Below are positions 1,422-24,954 of a DNA stretch of 24,954 bases, piece by piece. Source of the DNA: a virus (Duplodnaviria > Heunggongvirae > Uroviricota > Caudoviricetes); IMG/VR virus record IMGVR_UViG_2706794665_000003; one strand, 5' to 3'. Both the position numbers and the translations under genes were made by a program. Within the stretch, counting starts at the first letter, position 1. Each line of letters begins with the position of its first letter. Below the pieces are notes generated by a model, which did not search any database, was not told the DNA's origin, and saw only the letters and a program-made list of their open reading frames with translations.

Positions 1422-4400
1422 TATGCGAGCCTCACAATATAGTTAAATGCGATGTTTTTGACGGTGTTTTCCGCGTTACCAGCAGCGTTAACGGTGATGG
1501 TGTGTCCATGTGAACCAATCGCAACAGAGTGCGTATGAGCACCAATACCGACAGTATGCGCGTGTGCACCCGCAGATGCTGCTGTGCCGGACAGTGAGTG
1601 TGTATGGTTTCCTTCTGAAGATGATTTACCTACCCATTGGGAGGTGCCACTGGTTAATGAGCCACTGATACCAACCTGATTAGTCCCGCTAACTTGAGTA
1701 CTCCCTGCCGGAAACATTCCAGTAGGTTGACTCCCGCTATTCGTTCTGGGCCCAGTCTGACTATGTTGGTGGGCCCCAGCTGAACTTGTAGAGCCGCTCA
1801 GACTGTGCGTATGCGCCCCGGTGTTATTCGTGGATTTAGTGCCGTAATCAAACGACGATGTGGTTTTCGTCCCCAAATCCGTACTGGATGCGCTGGCGCT
1901 GTGGGTGTGCGATTTAATGCCATCCTGTTCCTGAGACAATACGGCACGACCACTGGCGGGCTTGCCCTTAATCGTCCAGCCACGCATATCAGGGATCACG
2001 CCTGACGGATAAGCGGCTGCAAGTTTCGGGTAAGCAGATTTGTCAAAAGTCTGCCCCTGCATCAGGGCATAACCAGACGGAACGGTATCTGATGGCCACG
2101 GGATTGGTGCACCGACTGGATAAAACTCTGCAGGAGGATGAGCCGAGGTGTAAAGCTGCGCCCACGGCGACCAGTTTGCGTCGGTCGTATCCCGTCGTGA
2201 ACGAATAAATGCCGGAGCATGAGCACCGCTTGTACCACTCCAGCCGATGAGTAACTCACCTTCGCCAACGGCTGTCATCCCTTTCAGGTGAATGATATTT
2301 CCATACGCTGTTGGATATCCGTTGTTATACACCTCGTATAACTCAAGACCTGCTGCCCCCTGCGTATTGTCTGTCAGCGCGGCTACCCGACCTTTTGAAG
2401 CCAGATTAACTGATGATACTGCTGTTCCACCTGACGGTAGCGCCCCGATCTCTGATGCCGTTGGCTTATTTCTGGAGTTATAGTCCCTTCGCCAGCCAGG
2501 TGAATAATCTGTTCCGTGATTAATATAGGTAAACTGGGCGTTGGTTGTTCCGCCACCGCTGGATGTGGTCGGAGTGGTAATGCGGATCGTCATCGCTGAC
2601 TTTATCCCCATTACTTCAATGACAGCTCCGGCGAGATGAATATTACCGCAGCCAGTATCAGTAATGATTTTATTATTGCCATAAGACCAGGAACCCTTGC
2701 ACATCCAGTATGGATGGTTAAATGCTCCCTGAGAATCCAGCCACTCGATAAACTGTGCAGTCGTCCAGTTTCCTGTTGTTGTGCTTACTGACCCACCGAA
2801 GGCACGGCAGGCACCAATATTTTTCGTAAAGGTGTCTTTGCCAGGGATATCCGCACCGTTCTGATCTTTCTGCAGACGTTTCTCAGCATTGTCATTGGCT
2901 GCTTTTACTGCCTTTGGCGTTGCCGCCAGCGTTTCAGACGTGCTGTTGGTCGCGCTGCTTAGCTGGATTATCCCTTTCTGTGCTGTCGTTGCATCCTGTG
3001 CGGTGTATTTCCCGTTAGCCAGGTCATACGCGGCCTTAACGGCTTTTGGTGTTGCCGCCAGTGACTCGGAAGTGCTGTTAGTCGCACTACTGAGCTGTAC
3101 TATCCCCTTTTTCGTCGTGCTCGCATCCTCAAGCGCCACGGCGGATGCAATATCCTCTGCCCGTTTTGCCGCTGTCTCAGCGCGCGTTGCTGCAGATTCC
3201 GCCGTACTTTTGCTCTGAGCTGCTGCCGTCGCACTACCAGCAGCCTCTGTCGCCTTCGTGGATGCCGTCGTGGCGCTGCCCTTCGCTGCTGACGCCTGTC
3301 TGGTCGCCTCATCTTTTGAAGCAGACGCCGATGATGCCGATGACGCCGCCGAACTGGCGGACGATGCGGCAGCCGTTTTTGAGGATTCTGCACGGGTTTC
3401 CGACGCTTTCGCGTTCGTTTCGGATGTCTTCGCTGCGGAAGCTGACCTCGCTGCTGCCGTGGCCTGCTCAGTGGCTTCGCCAGCCTTCGTTGTGGCTGTT
3501 GAAGCGGATGATGCGGCGCTTTCTGCCGATTTTCCGGCGGCGGTGGCACTGGCTGAGGCCTGCCCGGCACTTGTTGACGCGGCGCTGGCAGACGACGCAG
3601 CCGCTGTTTTTGAGCCTGCCGCAGCTGAGGCACTCTGTCCCGCTGCCGTTTCAGAAGACCTGGCGTTCGTCTCGGACGTTTTGGCCGCCTTCGCAGAATT
3701 TGCAGCCGCCGTCGCCGAGGAAGCTGCGCTACTGGCGCTTGATGATGCGTTCGTTTCTGATGATTTTGCCGCCTCTTTTGAAGCCGACGCATCCCGGGCT
3801 GAGGTGGCAGCTTCTGACGCTTTCGTGGTCGCGGTGGATGCAGAAGTGGCTGCTGATTGTTGTGACGCTGCCGCATTCGTTTCTAACGTTTTCGCCGCAC
3901 CGGCACTGGTAGCCGCCGCGCTTTTTGAGGACTCTGCAGCGGCAGCACTTTTTGAGGCTTCAGTGGCCTTTGTTGATGCCGTTCCTGCGCTGGAAGACGC
4001 TGACTGAGCCGACGAAGCGGCCTGTCCGGCTGACGTGCTGGCTGCACGTGCTGAATCTGCAGCATCAGTCGCATGGGTTGCCGCCTCACGGGCTGATGTG
4101 CTGGCATCGCTGGCTGATTTCTTCGCGGCTGCCGTGTTCTGTGCCACCGCGGACGCGTTACGCGCCACCTCTTCCACCATCAGCTCAAAACGGCGCAGTG
4201 CCTCCGGACGGGCATCATCCTCCGTCATGGCACCGAGAAAATCATTNNNNNNNNNNNNNNNNNNNNNNNNNNNNNNNNNNNNNNNNNNNNNNNNNNNNNN
4301 NNNNNNNNNNNNNNNNNNNNNNNNNNNNNNNNNNNNNNNNNNNNNNNNNNNNNNNNNNNNNNNNNNNNNNNNNNNNNNNNNNNNNNNNNNNNNNNNNNNN

Positions 4401-4506
4401 NNNNNNNNNNNNNNNNNNNNNNNNNNNNNNNNNNNNNNNNNNNNNNNNNNNNNNNNNNNNNNNNNNNNNNNNNNNNNNNNNNNNNNNNNNNNNNNNTTAC
4501 TGCCAT
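1421..4506 (-). CDS. stf: Side tail fiber protein Stf, enlarged; N-terminal region interrupted by gap 4247..4496
   Basis: Start ATG GCA GTA A (minus 4506..4497) directly after the post-lom terminator, as in lambda (MAV...). After the gap: [15 protein letters not shown]..., a long Ala/Ser/Thr-rich shaft, [14 protein letters not shown] motif twice, and a His-x-His-rich C-terminus ...[31 protein letters not shown]. The track ORF start at 4549 reads through the terminator hairpin and is not the real start. Total length is not a multiple of 3, so the gap does not preserve length. Confidence 0.88.
4247..4496. other. N-run (assembly gap or mask) inside the stf 5' region
   Basis: 250 consecutive N. 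Confidence 1.
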
Positions 4507-4570: not shown

Positions 4571-5067
4571 TCAGAATTTATAACCGACACCCACGATGAA
4601 ACCGTCAGTGCGCCAGAGACGTGTTGCTGTGGCGACCGTCATCACTTCCGGTCAGCACATCGTGCGTTTTCCCCTTATNNNNNNNNNNNNNNNNNNNNNN
4701 NNNNNNNNNNNNNNNNNNNNNNNNNNNNNNNNNNNNNNNNNNNNNNNNNNNNNNNNNNNNNNNNNNNNNNNNNNNNNNNNNNNNNNNNNNNNNNNNNNNN
4801 NNNNNNNNNNNNNNNNNNNNNNNNNNNNNNNNNNNNNNNNNNNNNNNNNNNNNNNNNNNNNNNNNNNNNNNNNNNNNNNNNNNNNNNNNNNNNNNNNNNN
4901 NNNNNNNNNNNNNNNNNNNNGTTCAGATCATCACTGCCGGGAACGTTGGTCCGGGCATGAAGATACCCCGCGCTCAGCGTGGACTGATGTTCAGACGCCC
5001 ATGCAGGCGCACCGGATACGGCCAGGCAAATGGCTGCGGACAAAATGGCTGCACAAACTTTACGCAT
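4571..5067 (-). CDS. lom: Lom outer-membrane protein (Ail/OmpX-like family), interrupted by gap 4679..4920
   Basis: N-terminus MRKVCAAILSAAICLAVSGAPAWA/SEHQSTLSAGYLHA has a signal peptide with an AxA cleavage site and matches lambda Lom. C-terminus after the gap ends ...GVGYKF-stop, an outer-membrane beta-barrel style terminal Phe. Shine-Dalgarno GAGAGG lies upstream of the ATG. Confidence 0.85.
4679..4920. other. N-run inside lom
   Basis: 242 consecutive N; the lom frame differs on the two sides. Confidence 1.
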
Positions 5068-5137: not shown

Positions 5138-8100
5138 TCAACGAATACTGATGCCGGAAGCCGCTTTTTTGGTCACAATCACCGTACAGTCGGTGATATT
5201 GCCTGCCCCCTGATTGCCTTTCTGGAAAATCTTAAACTCCAGAGTGACGCTACCACCACCACTAGGCATATCAATAACTGCACTGTAACTACCGGGAATG
5301 GCACCTTTAGTTTCTCTGGATGCGATTAATACGCCGTTTTTGCGAACTTCAAAACCATAACCCGTGTATCGCGTGCCTCCTGGGTTATTTCCGCTCCCCG
5401 GATCGTCATACGCTATACCGTTAAAAATAATGGGCGGAATAATAATCTGGCGGTCAAAGTTATGATCATCGCTTATGGTGACTGTAACCGTCCCGTTTGG
5501 TGTTTCCGTGTTACCCCACGTACCAGCCTGTTTCGGAAATGATTTGGATACAGCTTTAACGAAGTCACCTCTGACCTGAGTCGCCTCCAGCATGCCCTTA
5601 ATCGTACAGTTTTCATTTACCGTGACATTGTTGAGCGTCCCGGCGTTCGCATTCACACTGCCACTGATATCCGCATTTTTAGCGGTCAGCTTTCCGTCCG
5701 GAGTCAGGGAAAATGCCGATGGATTTCCACCGCTGGTAATGGTGGGGGCCGTCAGGCGTTTCAGGAACACGTCGTTCATGAATATCTGATCGCCCTGACC
5801 AACAAACATCGGTTTTGTGTTGCCATTCGCAGGATTAACCATCGCAATCCTGTCCGCCGCCAGCAGCACCTGACTCTGCATGCCGTCAGGGGTGTTCTCA
5901 ATACCGGCACCAATACCCGCGATATAAAGGCGTCCGTCCTGCATCTGCTGCAGCTTCACAGCCCACATGCTGTTCAGGTTATTATTTGNNNNNNNNNNNN
6001 NNNNNNNNNNNNNNNNNNNNNNNNNNNNNNNNNNNNNNNNNNNNNNNNNNNNNNNNNNNNNNNNNNNNNNNNNNNNNNNNNNNNNNNNNNNNNNNNNNNN
6101 NNNNNNNNNNNNNNNNNNNNNNNNNNNNNNNNNNNNNNNNNNNNNNNNNNNNNNNNNNNNNNNNNNNNNNNNNNNNNNNNNNNNNNNNNNNNNNNNNNNN
6201 NNNNNNNNNNNNNNNNNNNNNNNNNNNNNNNNNCGGTGCGGCAATCCGGAACGATACCGACGCCGGATCGCCCTGCTGCCCCCACGCATTTACTGCCCGG
6301 ACTGTCAGCCTGTAGTTCCCCAGCGCCAGTTGTGTGAAGCGGTAAGTGGTTTCCGTCGTCCGGGCCGTGCTGACCAGCCGCTCACTGCCGTCATCCGCTG
6401 TTACGGTCAGACGGAGCAGGAAGCTCACGCCCTTCACCACCTTCGGCGTGTCCCAGCGCGCCAGCACCTGATATTCCCCGCTGTCTGCGGTGACTTCGGC
6501 AGTCAGGTGCTGCACCGCTGGCGGCGTGACACCATTCACCGTGCCGCTCTGGTCGCCGTCAAAGTGCGCCCCGTTATCCACGATGGCTTCTTTTTCCGGC
6601 ACATGCTGCACGGCGGTGATGGCATACGTGCCGTCGTCGTTCTCACGGATACTCACGCAGCGGAACAATCGCTGGTGCAGCGTCGGCAGCTTCAGCCCCC
6701 ACACGCTGTATTCAGCAACACCGTCAGGAACACGGCTCACTTTTACCTTCACGCCGTCGGTGACGGACTGGACCTCCACGCTGACCGGATTCCCCTGCCC
6801 GTCAACCAGGCTTATCAGCGTGGTGCCGGAGGATGGCAGCGTGATTTCACGGTCGAGCGTCAGCGTCCGGGTCTGGCTGTTCACCGCCAGCACGCGCCCG
6901 CCGGTGCGGATACCGGCATAGTCATCATCGCAGATTTCAATGACATCGCCCGGTACATGACGAAGCCCTTCAGCACCCACGCTGAAATCCACGGTCTGCG
7001 TCTCCAGCAGTTCCGTTTTAATCAGCCACAGCCCGGCGCGGTGTGCCTGCCCCCGGCTGGTACAGCCAAAGGCATCCATCTTCGTGACGTTACGACCGTA
7101 ACGGACAATGGCCTGCGTATCCTCCACAAGCTCTGTCGCCGTCTCCCAGCCGTTATCCGGGTCAATCCAGTTCACCTCAACGGCATTATGGCGGTCTTTC
7201 AGGGCGCTGAAACTGTAGCGGAACGGCGCGCCATCATCCGGCATCACCACATTACTGCGGTTATAGGCCCACACCTTATCCGACTGTCGGTCCTGCACGA
7301 ACGTCAGCGTCTGCCCGTTCCATACCGGCATACAGCGCATCGCCGAGCAGAAATCACTGAGCACATCCCACGCCTTGCGCTGTGTGGTCAGCCAGGCATT
7401 ACAGGTGATGCGCGGCTCCGTGCTGCCAAAGCCGTCCGGCACCGACTGGTCACAGTACTGGCCGATGACATACAGCGCCCATTTATCCACATCTGCCGCA
7501 CCAAGACGTTTCCCCATGCCATAGCGCGGATGGGTCAGCATATCCCACAGACACCAGGCCATGTTGTTGCTGTATGCCGGTTTTAACGTTCCGTCCCAGA
7601 TACCGCTGTATTGCCGCGTCTGCGGATTATAGTTCGACGGCACCTGCAGAATGCGCCCGCGAAGATGATAATTACGGCTCACCTGCTGGCTGCCGAACTG
7701 CTCCGAATCCACCTGTACGCCGACCAGTGCCGTGTTCGGGTAGCACTGTTTCACATCGATGATTTCGGTGTATGACGACCAGAGCGTTTTGTTCTGCAGC
7801 TGGTCTGTGGTGCTGTCCGGCGTCATTCTGCGCATCCGGATATTAAACGGGCGCGGCGGCAGGTTATCCACCACCACCGAGGCCAGATACTGCGAGGTGG
7901 TTTTGCCCTTAATGGTGATGTCTTTTTCCGTCACCCAGCCACCGTTACGCTGTATCTGAACCAGCAGGCGAACTTCAGACGGATTCCTGTCTCCCTTTGA
8001 GGTGGTTTCCACCAGTGCCTGTACACCGAAGGTAAAACGCAGTCGGTCAATGTTTGCCGACGTGATGGTCCGGGTGATCGGCGTGTCATATTTCACTTCC

Positions 8101-8375: not shown

Positions 8376-8435
8376 TCGTCATGCTCCATAAACGATAAAA
8401 CCGCCCGGAGGCGATTTCACATAAAACATTTTGCA

Positions 8436-9107: not shown

Positions 9108-9757
9108 TTGTCGGTATNNNNNNNNNNNNNNNNNNNNNNNNNNNNNNNNNNNNNNNNNNNNNNNNNNNNNNNNNNNNNNNNNNNNNNNNNNNNNNNNNNN
9201 NNNNNNNNNNNNNNNNNNNNNNNNNNNNNNNNNNNNNNNNNNNNNNNNNNNNNNNNNNNNNNNNNNNNNNNNNNNNNNNNNNNNNNNNNNNNNNNNNNNN
9301 NNNNNNNNNNNNNNNNNNNNNNNNNNNNNNNNNNNNNNNNNNNNNNNNNNNNNNNNNNNNNNNNNNNATGGTAAGCATCCCGGAACAGCGTGTAACAGTC
9401 CGTCACCCCGTGCTCAAAGCGCCGCCCGGTAAGATGTGGCACACAGCGGAACTTGTGAATCGCCCCCCGGCAGACCAGCCACCACGGCAAATCACTCTGC
9501 ACCTGCAGCCGCCGGTCGGCCTCACTCAGCCAGGGCAGACCACCGGGGTGGCTGTGGACCAGTGCCACAATCTCACCCTGCATCTCTGCCTGCAGCCAGT
9601 CTTCCGGCGACATACGGAAATACGCCTCCGGCTCACCGGAGATATTCACGCAGGGGAAATATCTTTCCCCCTCCGGCGTTCTTACCACGAAGCCGCACGA
9701 CTCCGCTGGAGCACATCGCCGGGCGTGCGCCAGAATCGCTGATTCTGTCTCTGTCAT
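9005..9757 (-). CDS. K: Tail assembly protein K (MPN/JAB plus NlpC/P60-like), central part in gap 9118..9367
   Basis: N-terminus MTETESAILAHARRCAPAESCGFVV...HSHPGG (JAMM-like HSH motif) ...DCYTLF (NlpC/P60-type Cys); C-terminus after the gap ...AFTGICNDLAAASTFV. 3' end overlaps the I start by 103 nt. True length is uncertain because of the gap. Confidence 0.85.
   Translation of the reverse strand: MTETESAILAHARRCAPAESCGFVVRTPEGERYFPCVNISGEPEAYFRMSPEDWLQAEMQGEIVALVHSHPGGLPWLSEADRRLQVQSDLPWWLVCRGAIHKFRCVPHLTGRRFEHGVTDCYTLFRDAYHXXXXXXXXXXXXXXXXXXXXXXXXXXXXXXXXXXXXXXXXXXXXXXXXXXXXXXXXXXXXXXXXXXXXXXXXXXXXXXXXXXXXTDKWQRRTHSLWRHRAWHASAFTGICNDLAAASTFV
9118..9367. other. N-run inside K
   Basis: 250 consecutive N. 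Confidence 1.
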
Positions 9758-19472: not shown

Positions 19473-23073
<3,601 letters not shown>

Positions 23074-23099
<26 letters not shown>

Positions 23100-23619
23100 T
23101 CAGCAACCCCGGTATCAGTTCATCCAGCGCGGCTGCTTTGTTCATGGCTTTGATGATATCCCGTTTCAGGAAATCAACATGTCGGTTTTCCAGTTCCGGA
23201 AAACGCCGCTGCACCGACAGGGGGATCCCGTCGAGAATACTGGCAATTTCACCTGCGATCCGCGACAGCACGAAAGTACAGAATGCGGTTTCCACCACTT
23301 CAGCGGAGTCTCTGGCATTTTTCAGCTCCTGTGCGTCGGCCTGCGCACGCGTAAGTCGATGGCGTTCGTACTCAATAGTCCCTGGCTGGAGATCTGTCTC
23401 GCTGGCCTGCCGCAGTTCTTCAACTTCCCGGCGCAGCTTTTCGTTCTCAATTTCAGCATCCCTTTCGGCATACCATCTTATAACGGCGGCAGAGTCATAA
23501 AGCACCTCATTACCCTTGCCACCGCCTCGCAGAACGGGCATTCCCTGTTCCTGCCAGTTCTGAATGGTACGGATACTCGCACCGAAAATGTCAGCCAGCT
23601 GCTTTTTGTTGACTTCCAT
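23074..23619 (-). CDS. Nu1: Terminase small subunit Nu1
   Basis: 181-aa ORF MEVNKKQLADIFGASIRTIQNWQEQGMPVLRGGGKGNEVLYDSAAVIRWYAERDAEIENEKLRREVEEL... matches lambda Nu1 (N-terminal winged helix-turn-helix). Confidence 0.95.
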
Positions 23620-23643: not shown

Positions 23644-23758
23644 AGAAAGGAAACGACAGAGGCCAAAAAGCCCGTTTTCAGCACCTGTCGTTTCCTTTCT
23701 TTTCAGGGGGTGTTTTAAATAAAAACATTAGGTTACGGCGAAGAAGAACGGAAACGCC
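23644..23758 (-). promoter_or_regulatory. cosB: Nu1-binding R1 (23644..23659), R2 (23685..23700), R3 (23739..23758) with AT-rich IHF-site region between R2 and R3
   Basis: R1 AGAAAGGAAACGACAG, R2 CTGTCGTTTCCTTTCT (inverted relative to R1), R3 CGAAGAAGAACGGAAACGCC; same sequences and spacing as lambda cosB as I recall them. Confidence 0.8.
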
Positions 23759-23796
23759 TTAAACCGGAAAATTGTCATAAATAGCGAAAACCCGCG

Positions 23797-23808
23797 CGCC
23801 TTCCGCCC
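23797..23808. other. cosN core (position of the 12-nt cohesive end); sequence differs from canonical lambda
   Basis: Flanks align with lambda (CGCGGGTTTTCGCTATTTATGA... on one side, CGTAACCTGTCGGATC... on the other), but the 12-mer reads GGGCGGAAGGCG on the lambda top strand versus lambda GGGCGGCGACCT. Confidence 0.7.
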
Positions 23809-24007
23809 CGTAACCTGTCGGATCGCCGGAAAGGACCCGCAAAATGATAATAATTATCATCTACATGTCACAACGTGCATCTACGCCATCAAACCACGTC
23901 AAATAATCAATTATGACGCAGGTATCGTATTAATTGATCTGCATCAACTTAACGTAAAAACAACTTCAGACAATACAAATCAGCGACACTGAATACAGGG
24001 CAACCTC

Positions 24008-24709: not shown

Positions 24710-24954
24710 ATCATAACGTCCGGTTTCTTCCGTGCCAGAACCGGACTCGCTGGCATGATGAAATATGTGTACCCGGTAACCCCGGTGTGCATCGTTTTTG
24801 ATTATTCCCGCACACTCGCGCAGAAGGAGTTCCCCGTCGGGCTACGGTCTCTGTTAATACGGGAATACGGCGACGATTGGATTTGCCCCTATATTTCCAG
24901 ACATCTGTTATCACTTAACCCATTACAAGCCCGCTGCCGCAGATATTCCCGTGG
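24710..24954 (+). promoter_or_regulatory. Non-coding region downstream of the YbcV-like gene; by lambda synteny the region upstream of bor
   Basis: No ORF with a credible start; the sequence aligns with what I recall of the equivalent lambda segment (TAAATCATAACGTCCGGTTTCTTCCGTG...). The bor gene itself would lie beyond the window end. Confidence 0.4.

Follow-up and report, generated by a model that had tools for sequence, protein, structure and literature searches.

A natural allele of the lambda cohesive end with a rewritten right half recurs in Escherichia prophages and phage-plasmids

The window analysed here, the whole 24,954-nucleotide stretch of a Caudoviricetes record (IMG/VR IMGVR_UViG_2706794665_000003), carries a cos site of the lambda type in which the 12-bp cohesive-end segment reads GGGCGGAAGGCG, where lambda bp 1-12 read GGGCGGCGACCT. 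Judging from sequence comparisons, it is highly probable that the site is a functional lambda-type cos with a natural cosN allele, which would be cut by a near-lambda terminase. The initial annotation of this DNA had left two readings side by side, a natural cos variant or a cos inactivated in a decaying prophage. The former is borne out by the presence of the 12-mer in 158 genomes, 51 contigs, 23 plasmids and 2 phage records, by the intact terminase genes that accompany it and by its position as the sole cos of phage PhiR46_1; the recurrence of the allele and the intact terminase genes give no support to the latter.

We took lambda NC_001416 as the reference, joined its right and left ends, and aligned it to the minus strand of the window. 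Lambda bp 1-12 pair without a gap with window positions 23808 to 23797, and this segment (23797..23808, minus strand) departs from lambda at five of the 12 positions, bp 7, 8, 9, 10 and 12, all on the cosB/Nu1 side. The left half is lambda's GGGCGG; the right half (bp 7-12, 23797..23802, minus strand), which contains all five substitutions, reads AAGGCG versus CGACCT in lambda. About six differences had been proposed. The lambda 12-mer on which this count was based agrees with NC_001416, the canonical 12-mer that might have refuted the claim did not appear in the window and the site does differ from lambda, with the count corrected to five; the placement of the substitutions in the Nu1-side half is right for every one of them. 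The CG dinucleotides at both nick sites are kept, the 16-bp cosN (23795..23810, minus strand) being CG-GGGCGGAAGGCG-CG, and the predicted nicks would fall between 23809 and 23808 on the top strand and between 23797 and 23796 on the bottom strand.

The flanks were also found to be nearly identical to lambda with scattered single changes, as the initial annotation had it: 16 scattered mismatches were counted over 326 ungapped positions (4.9%), the flank set being lambda -200 to -1 and 1-132 minus bp 7-12. At this rate, five or more changes within a 6-nt block have a probability of 1.6e-6 per block, or about 5e-4 after correction for all blocks scanned. The cluster at bp 7-12 is thus a block replacement, and not a product of chance or drift. 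We considered an inversion as its source and rejected it, because CGACCT reverse-complemented does not give AAGGCG. The variant 12-mer has the same G+C content as lambda's (10 of 12) and a closely similar duplex stability (dG37 of -17.8 versus -18.2 kcal/mol, nearest-neighbour sums). The two-fold symmetry of the 16-bp cosN amounts to four symmetric pairs versus five in lambda, the G2/C11 pair and the flanking CG pairs being retained.

All other elements of the site are those of lambda. cosQ, the packaging-termination signal (GGGTCCT, 23832..23838, minus strand), has the lambda sequence and the lambda distance from cosN, 30 to 24 bp upstream of the top-strand nick. On the other side lie the cosB elements, all on the minus strand: R3 (23744..23759; lambda bp 50-65, coordinates from PMC9026076), the critical TerS binding site, R2 (23685..23700) and R1 (23644..23659). 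The three had been described as lambda-like and are letter-for-letter identical to it. The cosN-to-R3 spacing equals lambda's, with no indel from cosN to R2. The window thus shows each sequence feature of a lambda-type cos: cosQ, GGGCGG with its CG flanks, R3, R2 and R1 at lambda spacing, and adjoining terminase genes. In a close relative of the window cos, L103 (IMG/VR UViG_2734482788_000004, around 880-890), GGGCCCT stands in place of GGGTCCT as cosQ beside the variant cosN, a change in a supposedly invariant termination signal.

The genes around the site, on the minus strand, follow the lambda map: cos, Nu1, A, W, B, the head and tail genes and the tail-fibre region. From Nu1 to L the window is about 97% identical to lambda, a value that drops in J and the fibre genes, and the DNA upstream of cos is homologous to the lambda right end. 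Nu1, the small terminase subunit (181 aa; 23074..23619, minus strand), is 98% identical to lambda's, from which it differs by K48R, A75T and L132I; its N-terminal DNA-binding region is unchanged. Gene A, for the large terminase subunit (21254..23099, minus strand), is interrupted in the window by a masked run of 162 N (21718-21879), which leaves a 462-aa open reading frame and an apparent net loss of 80 nt. A look-up of exact matches to the portal protein led us to L210 and L212, two 4.8-Mb chromosomes that are 100% identical to the window on either side of the run and carry the same variant 12-mer. Both have 242 nt in place of the 162 N, and their gpA is an intact protein of 641 aa that departs from lambda's by four substitutions. 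A broken gene A was therefore rejected, and the terminase of the window's lineage is, to judge from these relatives, intact, since they encode the whole protein. Pfam PF07471 matches Nu1 of L210, a gene identical to that of the window, and PF07471, PF05876 and PF20454 match the Nu1 and gpA terminase genes of the window's identical relatives.

Five N runs are present in the window (4247-4496, 4679-4920, 5989-6233, 9118-9367 and 21718-21879). The masks are not length-faithful, since 162 N stand for 242 nt of L210 and L212; they create a false frameshift in A and probably one in J as well. Just ahead of the masked stretch of A, at codon 404 where the nuclease region starts (window about 21888-21890), gpA has an L404R substitution that is confined to the window's lineage (L210, L212) and absent from other carriers of the variant. 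Just past the end of the window (position 24954), a transposase of the IS3 family (rve, HTH_Tnp_1) occupies positions 1-1086 of the L210, L212 and L214 loci, directly upstream of a DUF1398 gene; in other carriers this place is taken by holin, lysozyme and spanin genes. It may be that the lysis region has been lost from the window's prophage, which may be defective upstream of cos for a cause unrelated to cosN. In L214 (GCA_040188985.1), a relative of 99.97% identity, Nu1, A and Z are each split into two open reading frames, either in a decaying copy or through indel errors in a draft assembly.

To follow the allele across genomes, we used megablast with a 44-nt query centred on the 12-mer; every 28-nt seed spans the whole 12-mer, so that each match carries the allele. 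The variant was found in 158 of the 5,426 complete E. coli genomes, at 169 places (153 chromosomal and 16 plasmid). A query of the same design placed the canonical 12-mer at 8,393 places in 4,474 E. coli genomes, 20 of them on plasmids. The variant accounts for about 2% of the lambda-type cos sites in complete E. coli genomes, genome counts that are inflated by clonal sampling and cryptic cos remnants. Its share is again about 2% on chromosomes (153 of about 8,526 places), and about 44% on plasmid records (16 of 36). PLSDB holds the variant on 23 plasmids, mostly of 42-47 kb, from E. coli, E. fergusonii, E. albertii and Shigella sonnei, and the phage collection holds it in two records, YDC107_1 and PhiR46_1. 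Among GTDB representative genomes searched with fixed lambda flanks, all nine matches had the canonical 12-mer and the window itself was not found. Three of the nine, L008 (Raphidiopsis brookii), L009 (Aeromicrobium sp.) and L010 (a plasmid of Alicyclobacillus fastidiosus), have lambda-identical cos regions (about 117 nt compared); these matches in unrelated bacteria are most likely lambda DNA contamination or spike-in in the assemblies.

In IMG/VR, a scan with a free 12-mer between lambda flanks returned 120 loci, of which 117 were canonical and the other three were the variant, T12G and G6A, one of each. Another scan, limited to sites with a base other than C at bp 7, returned 51 contigs with exact GGGCGGAAGGCG, and cosQ was in place in 50 of them. 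Two scans with a free 12-mer gave a single left-half variant among about 134 loci, but the IMG/VR scans held either the left half or the flanks fixed and are not an independent measure of left-half variation. All together, GGGCGGAAGGCG is the second most common cosN allele in the collections searched. Rare right-half alleles in IMG/VR were AAGGCT, AAGCGT, AGACCT and TGACCT, with CTGACG added by a third scan; AAGGCT may be an intermediate between the lambda and the variant allele. As full 12-mers, the rare cosN alleles noted in lambda-type context (L203, L196, L206, L180, L168/L178, L061 and L090) were GGGCGGAAGGCT, GGGCGGAAGCGT, GGGCGGCTGACG, GGGCGGAGACCT, GGGCGGTGACCT and GGGCGGCGACCG; the same set of loci includes one left-half change, GGGCGACGACCT.

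The variant is not tied to one background. After removal of duplicates, it occurs with at least 12 types of cosQ-cosN spacer and at least three types of cosB, and the canonical 12-mer is likewise found on several cosB types. Among eight chromosomal places with an identical portal protein, four have the variant and four the canonical 12-mer. The allele is also linked to three Nu1 haplotypes, none of which departs from lambda in the DNA-binding region.

Every annotated carrier that we examined (H41 to H44, PhiR46_1, pRHBSTW-00124_4, L210, L212 and L216) has an intact Nu1 (546 nt) and an intact A (1926 nt). Four chromosomal carriers that match the core at 100% have intact Nu1 and A, and their lysis modules differ. 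In five variant carriers, the identity of gpA to its lambda counterpart is 98.9-99.5%, versus 99.1-100% for 35 canonical carriers. A co-adaptation of the terminase to the variant cosN was looked for and not found in the nuclease domain, which has no residue that tracks the allele.

Among the carriers, PhiR46_1 (PV340565.1) is an N15-style linear plasmid-prophage, annotated with telL, telR, ParAB and a primase; its head and tail gene set is complete and of lambda type, and its only cos-like site is the variant. ΦR46.1 is listed as an isolated temperate phage (Saxton et al., Table S1), from a panel of temperate phages plaqued on MG1655 or ECOR13 derivatives (Saxton et al.), and GenBank gives ECOR13 as the host of PhiR46_1. 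The record is the linear-plasmid form, from telL to telR, and is silent on virion ends. That an isolated phage has the variant as its sole cos is indirect but real evidence for the viability of a phage that depends on this cosN, and it lends indirect support to the predicted 12-nt 5' overhangs. Both carrier plasmids examined, L138 (PhiR46_1) and L208, belong to the N15-like phage-plasmids and have the head and tail genes of lambda.

How a terminase so close to lambda's would cut this site can be read from published cosN genetics. The two halves of cosN are not equivalent in function: mutations at bp 7-12 matter very little and the symmetric changes in the left half are severe (PMC4669245, Feiss et al. 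2015). For example, G2C costs about 10-fold and C11G nothing (PMC4669245). Bottom-strand nicking is insensitive to sequence, TerL being anchored through TerS at cosB (PMC4669245); a 2022 review likewise describes TerL as an enzyme of low sequence specificity that is positioned from R3, bp 50-65 (PMC9026076). Natural variants within bp 7-12 have been described in phiD326 and N15 (positions 9 and 12) and in Gifsy-1 (8, 9 and 11), with the CG pairs at the nicks and cosQ conserved among them (PMC4669245). Moreover, cosN-N15, changed at 9 and 12, is used by lambda TerL as efficiently as cosN-lambda (PMC4669245). The initial annotation had seen a bearing on terminase nicking specificity. That question stands, in large part, as already answered: lambda TerL is insensitive to bp 7-12 (PMC4669245), and the gpA of the carriers cannot be told apart from the gpA of canonical carriers.

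We therefore propose, from the published insensitivity of terminase to the right half (PMC4669245), that the block at bp 7-12 would be tolerated. Nu1 and gpA, essentially identical to lambda's, would bind the unchanged R3, R2 and R1 of cosB, and this binding would set the gpA nuclease at a fixed distance, giving the usual two nicks 12 bp apart. What terminase reads is all in place, namely GGGCGG, the CG pair beside either nick, cosQ and the distance from cosN to cosB; bp 7-12 would go unread, with the bottom-strand nick placed by cosB anchoring and not by local sequence. The virion DNA would then have 5' overhangs GGGCGGAAGGCG and CGCCTTCCGCCC in place of lambda's, and such an end would cyclise its own genome normally, since its G+C content and duplex stability are those of lambda or nearly so. 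The precise sites of nicking and their 12-nt stagger are predicted from homology to lambda; the cutting efficiency is likewise a prediction, and five simultaneous changes could lower it. As a proxy for termini, we searched phage records and IMG/VR contigs for any that start or end exactly at the variant nick and found none.

A cos that functions but is cut unlike lambda's, by a shifted bottom nick, with another overhang length, or at a markedly lower efficiency for which a terminase or host factor would have to compensate, is an unlikely alternative. In its favour are the drop from five to four symmetric pairs in the 16-bp cosN, the five simultaneous changes (bp 7-10 and 12), a combination for which there is no published mutant, and the enrichment of the gpA substitutions N9D and S21A, found in four of five variant carriers versus two of 35 canonical ones. 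However, the distance from cosN to R3, by which the bottom-strand nick is set, is that of lambda, and the CG flanks and the G2/C11 pair are retained. Both gpA substitutions are at the very N-terminus, next to the linked Nu1 haplotype; they also occur in canonical carriers, and are missing from one variant carrier and from the window's lineage.

We consider it very unlikely that the changes are damage to the cos of a prophage that is decaying and has lost the ability to be packaged. Although bp 12, the base beside the bottom-strand nick, is changed, the changes are confined to the mutation-tolerant half, and G12 is the N15 state, cut normally by lambda TerL. Although gene A looks interrupted in the window, the break is a masking artefact, as L210 and L212 show, and the carriers have intact terminase genes. 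The IS3-family element past the window end in identical relatives and the split Nu1, A and Z of L214 also fit decay; against it, the same 12-mer stands in hundreds of independent genomes with many flanks and cosB types, where random decay would not keep one 12-mer, and it is the sole cos of an isolated phage, PhiR46_1. The chance that the sequence is a sequencing or assembly artefact is negligible. Cohesive-end junctions are prone to mis-assembly when virion DNA is sequenced, but this site lies within a chromosomal prophage, and L210 and L212 are whole chromosomes. The complete genomes with the allele come from many laboratories and platforms, and it is further present on plasmids of four species of Escherichia and Shigella; an error of this kind, which had been named as a possible refutation, is excluded because the 12-mer recurs in hundreds of independent assemblies.

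A functional natural allele, the reading we retain, would have a consequence for end joining. Between a variant and a lambda end, only bp 1-6 would pair contiguously, with a dG37 of about -8 kcal/mol versus about -18 for the full 12-mer. The lambda cohesive-end compatibility group is defined by an end identical or fully complementary to lambda's GGGCGGCGACCT; the variant, which differs from it at five of 12 positions, lies outside this group. A 2-bp mismatch between lambda and N15 ends lowers the yield about four-fold (PMC4669245). Mixed lambda and variant ends, with a 6-bp run in common, are predicted not to anneal productively, and since two mismatched base pairs already have this cost, a 5-bp mismatch would be close to non-viable. 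The point on sticky-end and packaging compatibility with lambda in the initial annotation is upheld as a prediction.

Comparison with known systems places the allele more precisely. It shares with lambda cosQ and its distance, GGGCGG, both CG pairs, the cosN-R3 spacing, R3, R2 and R1, together with a gpA more than 99% identical, and differs at bp 7, 8, 9, 10 and 12 of the cohesive end, which leaves a 6-bp contiguous run in common. The cosN of N15 and phiD326 (GGGCGGCGTCCG) is likewise a natural variant of the right half only and has G12, and thus the CG^CG context at the bottom nick. However, the variant departs from it at bp 7-10 and has five changes relative to lambda where N15 has two; set against an N15/phiD326-type allele, with changes at bp 9 and 12 only, it has G12 alone in common. 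N15 further has a simple cosB of its own, and its TerL is only 65% identical to lambda's; the variant, in contrast, is mostly found with lambda-type cosB and terminase. Gifsy-1, a Salmonella phage, similarly combines a right-half cosN variant with a lambda-like packaging module, but with bp 8, 9 and 11 changed and in another host genus (as described in PMC4669245). Finally, lambda-dependent PICI satellites of the EcCICFT073 type reuse cosQ and cosN with other cosB (PMC9026076), which shows that the sub-sites of cos assort as modules, and the variant also occurs on several cosB types. The descriptions of these satellites, in contrast, give them a cosN almost the same as in lambda, and the present case is no satellite but a complete phage that encodes its own terminase.

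In the searchable full-text literature, the variant 12-mer and the reverse complement matched only two papers, both unrelated, one dealing with a plant gene and the other with a Streptomyces gene. The specific allele is thus apparently new, undescribed and fairly common. That right-half variation in cosN is tolerated by terminase is already known (PMC4669245); the variant has more changes than any allele we found described. It leaves the accepted terminase mechanism unchanged and confirms, from natural variation on the scale of populations, that the two halves of cosN differ in function, with the right half almost wholly rewritten and the terminase still lambda-identical.

Practically, cos or terminus finders that match GGGCGGCGACCT would miss about 2% of the lambda-type sites of E. 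coli, and on phage-plasmids almost one site in two, and cosmid or in-vitro packaging with such phages would yield ends that do not anneal to lambda arms. A more speculative proposal, which we think rather doubtful, is that GGGCGGAAGGCG marks a second widespread cohesive-end incompatibility group on the same lambda-type terminase, kept because mismatched ends block chimeric cyclisation. If so, chimeric chromosomes with one cos type at the start and the other at the end could not cyclise productively, and the phage-plasmids would be genetically isolated from canonical lambdoid prophages in the same cells. Apart from this proposal, lambda-type packaging modules of Escherichia have at least two common sticky ends, predicted to be mutually non-annealing, and end compatibility may bias exchange between co-resident prophages.
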